This document shows positions 1 to 6,195 of a DNA stretch of 6,195 bases, one piece after another (position 1 is the first letter of the stretch; each line of letters begins with the position of its first letter). The notes under the pieces were generated by a model. The model worked only from the letters and a program-made list of their open reading frames with translations, was not told where the DNA came from and ran no database searches. The translations under genes and the position numbers were made by a program. The stretch is from a virus (Duplodnaviria > Heunggongvirae > Uroviricota > Caudoviricetes): the IMG/VR virus record IMGVR_UViG_2728369186_000004; one strand, given 5' to 3'.

Positions 1-93
1 TGTTCTGAGGTGAGCATATCACCTCTGTTCAGGTGGCCAAATTCAGTAAACCACTTCAGAACCTTATTTCATGCAAATGAGATCTACAATTAG
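1..93 (+). CDS. 3' end of an upstream gene (partial, unknown product); frame 1 open from window edge to TAG at 91-93
   Basis: Frame 1 has no stop from position 1 until TAG 91-93 (...CSEVSISPLFRWPNSVNHFRTLFHANEIYN*), overlapping the tail-fibre start by 23 nt. Only 30 codons visible, no motif recognised. Confidence 0.3.
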   Translation, partial: CSEVSISPLFRWPNSVNHFRTLFHANEIYN

Positions 94-1586: not shown

Positions 1587-1865
1587 ATGACTGAAATTAT
1601 ATATGGCGGTATCGGTGTTATCGCCTTAATTTGTGGTGGTCTTTGGAGACTTCACCGAAATCAATTAGCAACTGAAAATAGATTGTCGAAATTGGAATCC
1701 AGCGACGCATTGTTAAACCAGAAGTTTGAGACGATGCAAAGTAACCATGACCAGATCGCCGAGAGAGTTTATCGCATGGAACAAACACTACACGGTATAG
1801 AGAAGAAAGTGGTTGCGATGGACGCCAAATTTGACCAAGTTCTCGACATACTCAAACAAAAATAA
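1587..1865 (+). CDS. Small membrane protein, N-terminal transmembrane helix plus coiled-coil (92 aa); possible holin/lysis-associated or exclusion protein
   Basis: Strong SD cGGGGGcg (1577-1583) 4-9 nt before ATG 1587. Residues 4-20 IIYGGIGVIALICGGLW hydrophobic, followed by RLHRNQ (positive-inside suggests N-out/C-in). Remainder has heptad-like charged/hydrophobic periodicity (coiled coil). No family recognised with confidence. Confidence 0.55.
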   Translation: MTEIIYGGIGVIALICGGLWRLHRNQLATENRLSKLESSDALLNQKFETMQSNHDQIAERVYRMEQTLHGIEKKVVAMDAKFDQVLDILKQK

Positions 1866-1886: not shown

Positions 1887-2057
1887 ATGAAGAATAAACT
1901 TAAGAAATATTTTGGTTATCTCTTGATTATCGCCCTCACTTATAACGTAGCAATTAGACCTCTGCTAACGTCCTTTGGGCTTGAACTCCCGGCTATGACC
2001 GTGGATGAACAATTGCTAAGGACACTGGCGGGGGTCTTTTCGTTATTAGGGGGATAA
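1887..2057 (+). CDS. Small membrane protein (56 aa), not in ORF track; holin-like candidate
   Basis: ATG 1887 preceded by SD aaaGGGG (1873-1879, 7-nt spacer). Translation MKNKLKKYFGYLLIIALTYNVAIRPLLTSFGLELPAMTVDEQLLRTLAGVFSLLGG: Lys-rich N-terminus, one clear hydrophobic helix, no Cys (so not a lipoprotein). TAA 2055-2057 lies 1 nt before the ATG of the next gene (coupled). Confidence 0.45.
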   Translation: MKNKLKKYFGYLLIIALTYNVAIRPLLTSFGLELPAMTVDEQLLRTLAGVFSLLGG

Positions 2058-3180: not shown

Positions 3181-4218
3181 ATGGAGATTTTATTTGCTGA
3201 ATATATCAACTACACCGGATTTACAAGAAAAACGCCTCTTGACTATGAACCTATTGCCATTAAACGTTGTGATGAGTTGGGGTACATCTATAACGGTTTT
3301 GTTGTGCCGTGGAAAGGGCAACATACACCCGTTTCTATAACCTGCAAGAAACATAGCACAACGCGAACAATTGCTTTCAAAACTCTTAAAAAACAAGGTG
3401 CGTGTCTTGAATGCTATAAAGAATCATTAAAACTTCCTAAGAAAAAGAATAGAGATAAGGAAGCTGTACTAGATAAAGCAAGCAATGTGCTGGAACGCAA
3501 AGATATGGTTTTAGTTGGATTGTTAGAAGATTATAAAGGATTAGACACAAAAGTTTCTTATAAGTGCAATTGCTGTGATACTGCATACGAAACCATAATC
3601 ACTAGAATCATAAACGATGATGCTGGGTGTCGTCATTGTGGGTCAATTAAGAGAGGAATCAATAAGAGAAAACACACAGACGACGAATGGATGGATCTAA
3701 TTGAGCATGAATGCAGGAACAAACGACTTGAATTAATAGAACAACCTAAATCTCCTATATTGTCAACATCAAAAATACACATCAAATGTGAAAAAGGTCA
3801 TCTTTCTGATTCTTTGGTAGTTTATGGTTTAGTGTATGAAAACTTAGGCTGTCCATGTTGTTCTAAAAATGGTTATAACAGAAGTAAGTCGGGAGTTTTC
3901 TACGTTCAACAGGTCGGAGATTATATAAAATATGGAATAACAAACCATCTAAACCCACAAAAGCGAGTAACTCAACAAGCTAGGGAATCAGGGTTAAAAC
4001 ACAAGTTATTGTGGTATATAACGTTCGGTGACGGAAAAGTTGCCAATGACCTAGAGTATTCCGTAAAACATAACATAGGAAATCACGCTGCACCAAAAGA
4101 ACTAATCCCAGACGGATATACAGAAACATGTGACATAACCAAAGAAGCGCAGATTAGAAAAATGGCAATGGATTTTTGTAAAAACTCCAACAACTATAAA
4201 ATTACATATAGGGGGTAA
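3181..4218 (+). CDS. Protein with three tandem ~74-aa zinc-ribbon repeats and a C-terminal GIY-YIG/T5orf172-like domain (345 aa); candidate homing-endonuclease-like or DNA-binding nuclease-family protein
   Basis: SD GGAGG (3172-3176), ATG 3181. Metal-ligand sets at exactly 74-residue spacing: C55-x2-H58...C75-x2-C78; C129-x-C131C132...C150-x2-C153; C203-x3-H207...C224-x-C226C227, with flanking similarity (WKGQHTPVSITC / YKGLDTKVSYKC). C-terminus has GVFYVQQVGDYIKYGIT (GIY...YIG-like paired motifs), an Arg ~10 residues later (PQKRVTQQ) and downstream Glu (LEYSVKH, GYTETCD). Stop TAA 4216-4218 is 1 nt before the next ATG. Function inferred from motif spacing only. Confidence 0.55.
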   Translation: MEILFAEYINYTGFTRKTPLDYEPIAIKRCDELGYIYNGFVVPWKGQHTPVSITCKKHSTTRTIAFKTLKKQGACLECYKESLKLPKKKNRDKEAVLDKASNVLERKDMVLVGLLEDYKGLDTKVSYKCNCCDTAYETIITRIINDDAGCRHCGSIKRGINKRKHTDDEWMDLIEHECRNKRLELIEQPKSPILSTSKIHIKCEKGHLSDSLVVYGLVYENLGCPCCSKNGYNRSKSGVFYVQQVGDYIKYGITNHLNPQKRVTQQARESGLKHKLLWYITFGDGKVANDLEYSVKHNIGNHAAPKELIPDGYTETCDITKEAQIRKMAMDFCKNSNNYKITYRG

Positions 4219-4763: not shown

Positions 4764-4787
4764 ACTCTCTAACGCAATTAAATTAAA

Positions 4788-4809
4788 AAGGGGTACGGAT
4801 GTACCCCTT
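4788..4809 (-). terminator. Rho-independent terminator for the minus-strand recombinase/small-ORF transcript
   Basis: AAGGGGTAC (4788-4796) / GTACCCCTT (4801-4809), 9-bp stem, 4-nt loop. On the minus strand the stem is followed by TTTTTAATTT (complement of 4778-4787); on the plus strand only an A-tract precedes it. Confidence 0.6.
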
Positions 4810-4845
4810 AAAGCGTTTGGTTCGTTATACGGCGATTTAGGCCGC

Positions 4846-5103
4846 CTATGATTTATTTTCTTGTTCTATGAAAATCTTTCTCACCTCATCAGAATAAATG
4901 TCTAGTGATTCCTCATAACATTTTCTGTATTCACCGTAATTACTGGTGGTCTTTTGACATAGCAATTTCAATGTCTTATGTGCTCCATCAATGAAAGCAT
5001 CTTCTCTATAGGTTAGCGGTCTACGCATTTCTTGGTCTACGGTTGCCAATGCCAGGCAAGAATTCATAGATAAAATCAAACCTAAAATCTTAATCATCTT
5101 CAT
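4846..5103 (-). CDS. Small secreted protein (about 85 aa with predicted Sec signal peptide), unknown function
   Basis: Track ORF begins at a TTG (5118-5116); first ATG is at 5103-5101 (MKMIKILGLILSMNSCLALA|TVDQ...): basic n-region, hydrophobic core, ALA cleavage motif. Not a canonical lipobox (MNSC). Mature part ~65 aa with 2 Cys. Starts 5 nt after the recombinase stop, so co-transcribed. Confidence 0.5.
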   Translation of the reverse strand: MKMIKILGLILSMNSCLALATVDQEMRRPLTYREDAFIDGAHKTLKLLCQKTTSNYGEYRKCYEESLDIYSDEVRKIFIEQENKS

Positions 5104-5107
5104 TAGC

Positions 5108-6064
5108 TTAAATTCCAAATTCTTGTAATGGACCTGGTATTTCTTCTTCTGGTTTCCAGTTCTTATCTGTCAGCATGTCTAAACATGGATGCAGAACAAG
5201 CCCGTTACTCTCCAGAATCTGCCTATCATTGATAGTCTTCAAATCAACGAAGATCCGGCCTTTCCTCGGTCCTCTTGAATTTTCTATTACAACTCTCTGG
5301 GTCTTGCCATCGATGTATTCCAGTACAAACAAGTTTTTGTACTTGTCAATCCTGCTACACCCGATCCGTTTTAGAGCTTGCTTAATCTTAAACCGGACCT
5401 TAATGCGATCCTCGTTGTAAACATCTTCTAAATCAAATTCTGCGAGCTTCTCCCAGCCTTGAGAGTCAACAGAATACATTTCCTCTTCTGCCATCTTAAT
5501 TTGATTGTAGAGTGTTTCACGCTCGCTATTGAGGGTAGTAATCTGATCGGCTAGCTCCTTCGTTGCTCCTGTCATAGCAGAAAGGGTAATCAGGTTATCA
5601 ATCTTGCGTGATATTTCATCAATCTGTACTTTCAAAGCCGGAACCGGATTAGCCTTATCTTCAGCAATCCAGATTTTATCAGCCAGCAATTGCAATACAG
5701 CTTTCTCTAATTGGTCGCCGCGAAAACTCCAGTTTGTATGCACACATTCAATACGACTAGAGCGCATTGCATCGCATGAATAACGATATTGGTTAGGCCG
5801 TCTGTTTGTTCCTTTCACCTTAACCATAGCGGAACCGCAATGTTCACATTTCAATAGACCAACACCACTAAGCAAGGGAATAGGTTTAACTTCTTCTTTG
5901 TCTCCAAAGTTACATGCTCTAACACCAATGCTTTTCTTAAGGTGATAAAACTCAGCGTCATCTAGCACACGAGGATAATAATCCTTTAACTCATACTTAA
6001 CGCCATCTACAGAGATTTCCTTGATACCAATCAAAGCGCGGGTATGGAACAACCTTTCAATCAT
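5108..6064 (-). CDS. Large serine recombinase, C-terminal portion only (end of recombinase domain, zinc ribbon, coiled-coil); N-terminal catalytic domain not encoded in frame, so possibly truncated or a pseudogene
   Basis: Zinc-ribbon motif LLSGVGLLKCEHCGSAMVKVKG...YRYSCDAMRSSRIECVHTNWSFRGDQLEKAVLQLL (C73, C76, C97, C107), followed by a long predicted coiled-coil, typical of large serine recombinases. No resolvase-type catalytic domain precedes it. The frame stays open upstream of ATG 6064 to an in-frame TAG at 6167-6169, and that stretch (LNATYTPPPAASHKRHSNWSRA-MIERLFHTRALIG) still resembles the recombinase domain (W-x4-[VI]-x-R-[IL]...Y/L-x-G). Confidence 0.7.
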   Translation of the reverse strand: MIERLFHTRALIGIKEISVDGVKYELKDYYPRVLDDAEFYHLKKSIGVRACNFGDKEEVKPIPLLSGVGLLKCEHCGSAMVKVKGTNRRPNQYRYSCDAMRSSRIECVHTNWSFRGDQLEKAVLQLLADKIWIAEDKANPVPALKVQIDEISRKIDNLITLSAMTGATKELADQITTLNSERETLYNQIKMAEEEMYSVDSQGWEKLAEFDLEDVYNEDRIKVRFKIKQALKRIGCSRIDKYKNLFVLEYIDGKTQRVVIENSRGPRKGRIFVDLKTINDRQILESNGLVLHPCLDMLTDKNWKPEEEIPGPLQEFGI

Positions 6065-6195
6065 TGCCCGTGACCAGTTTGAATGCCTCTTGTGACTTGC
6101 GGCTGGTGGTGGTGTGTATGTCGCGTTAAGGTGATCTGATCCTACCCACGTAATATGGACACAGGCCTAAGCGAGGTTCTTGTTTTCAAATTGTT

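Follow-up and report, generated by a model that had tools for sequence, protein, structure and literature searches.

A recently gained small open reading frame with a predicted export signal behind the serine integrase gene of an E. coli/Shigella prophage remnant

The question raised by this locus is whether a small open reading frame (ORF), lodged between a prophage recombinase gene and the terminator of that gene, encodes an exported accessory protein or is a passenger of the recombinase module. The DNA analysed (6195 bp, GC 40.8%; "the window" refers to this whole stretch) is a decayed, IS-bracketed remnant, namely the right end of an E. coli/Shigella prophage with ends of IS3-family elements at both sides, and the lineage to which it belongs is siphovirus-like and carries a large serine integrase. 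The small ORF of interest is located on the minus strand, together with the 3' part of the recombinase gene, and the features of the window are as follows.

1..58, plus strand: end of an IS911-like element (another member of the IS3 family), which cuts off the tail-tip J gene
Plus strand: lambda-J-like tail-tip protein, C-terminal 469 aa
Plus strand: two small membrane-type ORFs
Plus strand: ORFs of 227, 115 and 345 aa, the 345-aa ORF being endonuclease-like
Plus strand: M15 peptidase endolysin
Plus strand: 65-aa ORF (orf65)
4779..4809, minus strand: intrinsic terminator with a 9-bp GC-rich stem, a loop of 4 and a T-run
4844..5105, no strand assigned: lineage-specific insertion of 262 bp with only the ORF inside, from the alignment of the region
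4846..5103, minus strand: orphan ORF, ATG 5103, 85 codons plus a TAG stop (4848-4846); alternative ATG 5097
4849..5043, minus strand: predicted mature domain, 65 aa, all-helical (2-3 helices), two Cys, from single-sequence AF2 models
5044..5103, minus strand: predicted Sec (SPase I) signal peptide, residues 1-20, MKMIKILGLILSMNSCLALA, with cleavage between ALA and TV, rule-based
5108..6136, minus strand: large serine recombinase, 3' remnant, residues 218-559 of 559; stop TAA 5110-5108
6137..6195, plus strand: IS3 end, which truncates the recombinase gene

The converging genes of the plus and minus strands meet at one terminator, and 3.4 kb separate the small ORF from the J gene. The terminator hairpin (4809-4788, minus strand) is followed by the T-run, lies 37 nt beyond the stop codon of the ORF, and is common to relatives with and without the ORF. 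The recombinase remnant keeps the Zn-ribbon and coiled-coil part and has lost the catalytic domain; IS3 cuts the gene at 6136/6137, and its 5' half and promoter are gone from the window. This IS3-truncated state had been missed in the original prediction.

The ORF itself is genuine, accessory and recently acquired. As originally described, it encodes 85 aa, runs in the same orientation as the recombinase gene, directly 3' of it and 5' of its terminator, and is richer in AT than its neighbour (GC 34.5% vs 41.2% in the recombinase remnant). The adjacency of both genes also held, although the gap between the recombinase TAA and ATG 5103 measures 4 nt (GCTA) rather than 5 nt. The program-listed ORF extends over 4846..5118 on the minus strand and starts at a TTG, giving 90 aa. 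This TTG 5118 is a mechanical extension into the pre-existing recombinase coding sequence, outside the 262-bp insertion, and an independent gene caller, applied to Logan assemblies, begins the protein (cluster P0001) at MKMIK; the true start is therefore ATG 5103, the first codon that the insert can supply, and the earlier doubt about the TTG was justified. From this ATG the protein reads MKMIKILGLILSMNSCLALATVDQEMRR...EQENKS. An open frame of at least 85 codons was obtained in 1.9% of shuffles of the insert (262-263 bp), and the codon-position structure of the ORF is weak, with GC1/GC2/GC3 of 0.37/0.31/0.35.

The comparison of about 45 related prophage ends revealed the origin of the ORF. In 21 relatives, including an outgroup whose recombinase is 72% identical (locus L045), the terminator region comes immediately after the recombinase stop (...GGAATTTAAGC abutting GGCCTAAATCG...), with an ORF-less junction that reads TAAGC and then GGCCTAAATCG. 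The recombinase C-terminal halves of these 21 empty loci are 72%, 90-91% or 96-99% identical to that of the window, and the insert is absent from every other recombinase lineage compared. Since all other lineages, the 72% outgroup included, have the empty junction, the ORF represents a single recent gain, and deletion in the relatives is ruled out by outgroup parsimony. The inserted segment exceeds the ORF by just 2 nt at each side, ahead of the ATG and beyond the stop, with a 2-nt GC ambiguity at the junction. Inspection by eye for the marks of a transposon-like insertion found no terminal inverted repeats, just the 2-nt GC microhomology and an imperfect TAAGC/TAGGC repeat.

Carriers are rare, and their copies of the ORF are nearly identical. 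The ORF was found in 18 of 5426 complete E. coli genomes (~0.3%), in 7 IMG/VR contigs and in 5 Logan contigs; among relatives, it is present in 18 of the 56 E. coli prophage ends and in 7 of the 28 IMG/VR elements. Several continents and hosts are represented among the carriers. In E. coli, the 18 copies share 98.4-100% DNA identity with the copy of the window, those from IMG/VR and Logan are 99-100% identical as protein, and none of the 18 E. coli genomes has a RefSeq/PGAP annotation at the position of the ORF. Thus, where the original prediction had named conservation in related elements as one point on which it could fail, the ORF turned out not to be conserved but to be a recent single gain with copies at least 98.4% identical. 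A higher conservation of the ORF than of its neighbours was also considered and rejected, as the adjoining recombinase half is equally conserved (99.3-100% identity among carriers). Taken together, the integrase-ORF module is at least 99.3% identical, whereas elsewhere the aligned sequence of some carrier prophages shares just 92-97% identity with the window; the uniformity of the module in diverged prophages indicates that it has moved among them.

Within this narrow range of variation, the ORF is intact in all but one of the 17 carrier loci compared, and the differences detected comprise four synonymous, three nonsynonymous and one nonsense change plus one in-frame insertion (an extra Ser). 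The nonsense allele, R33 to TGA, occurs in one carrier lineage (L019/L047). Half of the eight point substitutions are synonymous, against an expectation of ~24% (one-sided p ~0.1, a hand estimate and not significant), so that the pattern in the sequences leans to constraint without reaching significance; because all copies are at least 98.4% identical, dN/dS has no power here and purifying selection cannot be demonstrated. The frame is open in three different downstream contexts, ending in ..ENKS in the window type, in ..ENKLY in L004, which is a 5.5-kb hicB island, and in ..ENKSS in L005.

The signals expected for an independently expressed gene were not detected. Upstream of ATG 5103 or 5097 there is no Shine-Dalgarno (SD) sequence, the best anti-SD pairing being -3.3 kcal/mol, which is the background level, as ~35% of random positions reach -3.0 kcal/mol. 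By the same measure, seven plus-strand gene starts of the window were scored, of which six reached -7.9 to -10.6 kcal/mol and one, orf65, reached -5.1 kcal/mol. No sigma-70-like promoter was found on the minus strand between 4500 and 6195. Lacking a promoter of its own, the ORF would have to receive its transcription from the integrase operon and, as it has no SD, its translation would come from ribosomes terminating 4 nt upstream. In the window, where the recombinase gene is 5'-truncated, the co-transcription that had been proposed is therefore doubtful, and the ORF is probably silent, since the 5' half of the integrase gene and its promoter are lost and IS3 is oriented away.

The N-terminus of the protein follows the layout rules for Sec/SPase I substrates, i.e., a positive n-region, an apolar h-region of 7-15 residues, small residues at -3 and -1, and no Pro at +1. 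Its n-region is MKMIK, with K2 and K5, its apolar core comprises eight residues (ILGLILSM, I6-M13), and its c-region is NSCLALA, in which A-L-A occupies positions -3 to -1 before T21. Only 0.3% of the N-termini of random ORFs with matching base composition passed this rule-based layout test, as did 0.08% of residue shuffles. The layout matches the Sec-type signal peptide with an ALA-TV cleavage motif that had been predicted, and suggests that the product, if translated, would probably be exported. Lipoprotein signals follow the lipobox consensus [LVI][ASTVI][GAS]C (PROSITE rule PS51257); the residues before C16 are M-N-S, with misfits at -2 (N) and -3 (M). C16 is the third Cys of the precursor and lies inside the predicted signal peptide, an addition to the earlier description of a ~65-aa mature domain with two Cys (C49 and C62), which otherwise stands.

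AF2 models computed without an alignment gave a mean pLDDT of 75.5 for the full-length protein and 81.1 for the mature part, with values of 87-95 across residues 31-80, although the full-length and mature models are at odds over whether there are two or three helices. The helical hydrophobic moment was not above that of shuffles (p ~0.11). Fold searches were uninformative and pointed to no relative of any functional class. An exhaustive phmmer search of 1.84 billion representative proteins returned the own cluster P0001 and five long proteins, each matched over several stretches. Three of these (P0003-P0005) are TPR_10/TPR_12 proteins with E-values that are inflated, being summed over repeats; aligned to their single repeat units, the ORF protein showed 42-46% identity over 35-50 residues, and BLASTP against TPR_10/12 repeat units gave 43-46% identity over 35-40 aa. 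P0006 (1533 aa, E 3.1e-04) was matched over four stretches by query residues 12-49, and P0002 was dismissed as a relative, its sequence being a eukaryote-like repeat translation.

The resemblance is concentrated in residues 31-52, which resemble helix B of TPR_10/12 repeats, with the strongest match over KTTSNYGEYRKCYEESLDIYSD; hhalign assigned it a probability of 96% over 22 columns, using a profile built from the same hits, so that this test is circular. As judged from these alignments, the likeness to TPR_10/TPR_12 (PF13374, PF13424) is a resemblance and not family membership. On the one hand, mature residues 13-52 align at 42-46% identity to single units of three unrelated proteins, the helix-B signature N-Y-x-E-x-x-x-x-Y-x-E-[AS]-L-x-I-Y is present, and the predicted structure is a helix-turn-helix. 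On the other hand, the helix-A signature NNL[AG] is missing, the protein amounts to about one unit (at most ~1.5) whereas TPR domains normally need at least three, and its 65 aa with 2-3 helices hold no tandem array of three or more helix-turn-helix repeats. In addition, no Pfam family, TPR models included, matched the full or the mature protein at E<=10.

Searches for relatives that could point to a function gave a uniform outcome. A k-mer/HMMER search of 5.8 billion clusters recovered only the own 99%-identical cluster P0001, which was likewise the only homologue among the 1.84 billion representative proteins; tblastn against 50,697 phage records yielded no homologue, nor did GTDB species representatives and plasmids; and no match to the ORF protein was found in PHROGs, NCBIfam, PADLOC or PDB sequences. 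The lysogenic-conversion role originally proposed (exclusion, lysozyme inhibition or virulence) received no support: no likeness in sequence or fold was found to exclusion factors, lysozyme inhibitors or virulence modulators, including the Spackle, Ivy, PliC/MliC and LprI families. A role as recombination directionality factor of the serine integrase is improbable. Such a factor is a small cytoplasmic protein that binds the integrase, which is at odds with the predicted export signal, and relatives whose integrases are 98-99% identical lack the ORF although they must still excise.

Comparison with known systems places the ORF near, but not within, the classical cargo genes. Like morons and lysogenic-conversion genes such as lambda bor and lom, it shows a presence/absence distribution (the 18/56 and 7/28 given above) and an atypical composition (GC 34.5% vs 41%), is located in a variable region between tail/lysis genes and the integrase, and encodes a small protein predicted to be directed to the envelope. 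Its surroundings are a hotspot of accessory-gene swaps, in which endonuclease, helicase and GIY-YIG genes have been exchanged among relatives. Morons, by contrast, bring a promoter and a terminator with them, which allows their expression from the repressed prophage, whereas the ORF would use the integrase transcript and the pre-existing integrase terminator; its protein is related to neither Bor nor Lom in sequence or fold. Hence, the proposal of accessory cargo in a variable region is borne out by location, variability and composition, while the autonomous moron model does not apply, as promoter and SD are lacking. T4 Spackle (gp61.3) and P1 Sim are small periplasmic superinfection-exclusion proteins with cleaved signal peptides, and the architecture predicted for the ORF protein would be the same by analogy, in that a small, helical periplasmic part with Cys follows a Sec signal peptide. 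A similar likeness may exist with the Cor/Llp lipoproteins of T1-, phi80-, N15- and T5-like phages, receptor-blocking proteins that guard lysogens or infected cells against superinfection and that are small (60-80 aa when mature), Cys-containing and exported, as the ORF product is predicted to be. However, Cor/Llp proteins have a lipobox and their genes lie beside the receptor-binding protein gene, whereas the ORF has no lipobox and is located behind the integrase, far from J; no PHROG match was found.

The reading that we tentatively favour, while holding it at somewhat less than an even chance, is that of a functional, recently gained accessory ORF with an exported product. The comparison shows that an AT-rich 262-bp segment consisting of the bare ORF was inserted between the integrase stop and the integrase terminator, which placed the ORF on the integrase transcript. 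According to the proposal, ribosomes ending at the integrase TAA would re-initiate 4 nt further on, at ATG 5103, with expression that would be low and tied to that of the integrase. The predicted precursor would be cut after ALA20, releasing a 65-aa, all-helical mini-protein with two Cys into the periplasm, where the helix-B-like TPR_10 motif might form a small protein-binding hairpin. The most likely role would be that of an envelope-acting accessory factor of the lysogen, e.g., in superinfection exclusion or in modulating periplasmic host or phage proteins, although its absolute probability is low. Several observations favour a functional ORF: it fills the indel exactly; ORFs of its length appear in few shuffles (1.9%) and its signal-peptide layout in fewer controls (0.3% and 0.08%); AF2 predicts its helices confidently from a single sequence; its best matches among 1.84 billion proteins are TPR_10/12 units, allowing for the circularity of the profile test; the junction is empty in all other recombinase lineages (72-99%); the frame is open in three contexts and the module has spread over diverged prophages; and the region exchanges accessory genes. 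It is weakened by the lack of SD, promoter and RefSeq annotation (0/18), by the nonsense change at R33, by the near-identity of the copies, by the absence of any homologue or fold relative, by the disagreement of the AF2 models on helix number and by the unremarkable hydrophobic moment (p ~0.11). A variant of the functional reading, in which the protein belongs to a relative-less or very young family of periplasmic, single-TPR-like mini-proteins with synthesis coupled to that of the integrase by termination-reinitiation, appears improbable.

The main rival to a functional gene, and a serious possibility, is a non-functional passenger, that is, the captured 5' fragment of a foreign gene (the signal peptide and first TPR-like unit of a secreted repeat protein) brought by illegitimate recombination into the 3' UTR of the integrase gene, given a stop codon by local sequence, translated little or not at all, and persisting because it is young and harmless. 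This would account for the missing SD and promoter, for the mere 2 nt of insert upstream of the ATG, and for a stop codon located within TAGGC, which mirrors the flanking TAAGC (TAGGC in L005). It would also fit the TPR_10/12 likeness, which continues right up to the C-terminal end, as would be seen if a repeat array had been cut, the nonsense allele of L019/L047, the variable C-terminus (ENKS, ENKSS, ENKLY), the lack of any PGAP annotation and the rarity of carriers (18/5426). Nevertheless, the 1.84 billion representative proteins include no donor gene, it would take coincidence for the fragment to stop at a compact helical unit that is predicted with confidence, and the ORF has stayed intact through at least three rearranged contexts while the module spread across diverged prophages.

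Two other explanations carry less weight. In one, which we consider doubtful, the product is a membrane-anchored small protein with an uncleaved signal-anchor or a lipoprotein signal, toxin-like or acting in abortive infection or injection blocking like Hok, Imm and SieA. Many phage exclusion proteins are indeed small and located in the membrane, residues 3-22 (MIKILGLILSMNSCLALATV) could just span a membrane, and C16 follows a weakly lipobox-like L-S-M-N-S-C; but the strongly apolar core has just eight residues and is broken by S12, N14 and S15, the A-X-A site that follows is perfect and at the right distance, and N at -2 and M at -3 go against the lipobox consensus. In the other, which is very improbable, the frame is open by chance in an AT-rich insert that acts at the RNA level, either as a 3'-UTR extension of the integrase mRNA or as an sRNA. 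A probability of 1.9% for such an ORF cannot be neglected, and the weak codon-position structure and the missing SD would agree with this idea. Against it, an ORF that fills the whole insert, an ATG at the first possible position and a signal-peptide-like N-terminus (0.3%) are jointly far below chance, no Rfam match was found in the region, and the helices predicted by AF2 are confident.

If the improbable variant with coupled synthesis were correct, export of a small binder by the lysogen would coincide exactly with integrase production, during establishment or excision, and such a binder might, e.g., block superinfection or alter an envelope protein during these transitions. If the ORF is instead a passenger, the locus would be a case of ordinary prophage-end mosaicism, with a small ORF skipped by annotation pipelines. 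In either case the practical consequence is small, the ORF being present in ~0.3% of complete E. coli genomes. Even so, integrase modules that are near-isogenic and either have or lack the 262-bp, single-ORF insert constitute a clean natural experiment, and such a pair could show how bare ORFs join existing transcripts and whether a lysogen phenotype follows.

A functional product would further be an unannotated orphan secreted protein in a prophage family of which no phage has been sequenced. The C-terminal part of the recombinase has no relative at E<1e-10 encoded in any deposited phage genome, and a literature search for the hicB-integrating prophage gave nothing relevant. The intact relatives are prophages of ~35 kb integrated at hicB in E. 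coli chromosomes, and the clade whose integrase is 91% identical to that of the window is integrated in ycdX instead.

The prophage remnant in the window spans 6.08 kb and is bounded on both sides by IS3-family ends:

1-58, left end: IS911-like end of the IS3 family
6137-6195, right end: IS3 end (IS3 family)

Both the tail-tip J gene, of which only the last 469 aa are left (71-1480), and the recombinase gene are truncated at their 5' ends. The same prophage was found in dozens of E. coli genomes and IMG/VR contigs, yet a tblastn search of 50,697 deposited phage genomes with the C-terminal part of the recombinase (5108-6064, minus strand) gave no match at E<1e-10. Apparently, no member of this prophage family has ever been isolated as a phage.

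The 262-bp insert that holds the small ORF behind the recombinase gene ends on the right in TAGGC (4844-4848), similar to the TAAGC of its left flank (5106-5110); in the related locus L005, the left flank also reads TAGGC. This likeness may reflect an imperfect target duplication of 5 bp, in which case the small ORF would owe its stop codon to duplication of the sequence around the recombinase stop, but it could equally be due to chance. In L019/L047 (IMGVR_UViG_2711768048_000005), representing one carrier lineage, an AGA to TGA nonsense change at codon 33 of the small ORF leaves 32 codons. The tail of the ORF is altered in L004 (NZ_OY856299.1, 2513982-2521261), where it ends in ENKLY; this locus carries a 5.5-kb mini-island (locus positions 1461-6979) at the hicB site also used by the prophage, comprising genes for an LprI-family "lysozyme inhibitor" and a hypothetical protein, the small ORF, a frameshifted recombinase gene, and three small attR-adjacent genes. 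The island is either a prophage deletion derivative or a satellite-like element.

Candidates for a role in lysis or exclusion at least as good as the small ORF are provided by a pair of ORFs directly 3' of the J gene, since they adjoin the gene for the receptor-binding protein:

1587-1865, plus strand: 92-aa ORF with an N-terminal transmembrane segment and a coiled coil
1887-2057, plus strand: 56-aa hydrophobic ORF

Both are preceded by strong Shine-Dalgarno sequences (-8.6 and -7.9 kcal/mol, respectively), and their PHROG matches, all weak, are to holin, Rz-like spanin, and bacteriocin immunity families.

An accessory gene, present in some of the compared loci and absent from others, lies further downstream:

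3181-4218, plus strand: 345-aa ORF matching PHROG 681 "endonuclease" (E 9e-43), with a weak CapR homology domain match

The L001 copy of this ORF is uninterrupted and the L002 copy is split by IS2; in L006-L011, which lack the ORF, the 115-aa ORF leads directly to the M15 peptidase gene. In L003, genes for a DEAD-box helicase, a hypothetical protein, and a GIY-YIG nuclease are found instead, downstream of the M15 gene.

The recombinases of the L001 and L003 clades share about 91% identity across the C-terminal 318 aa, and their chromosomal sites differ (hicB, adjoining ydcR, versus ycdX), a natural pair of possible use for mapping the target specificity of a large serine integrase. A further relative, encoded on a 512-bp contig labelled Actinacidiphila cocklensis (JANCAF010000145.1), comprises 96 residues with 84% identity to the enterobacterial prophage recombinase and most likely reflects contamination of the actinomycete assembly.
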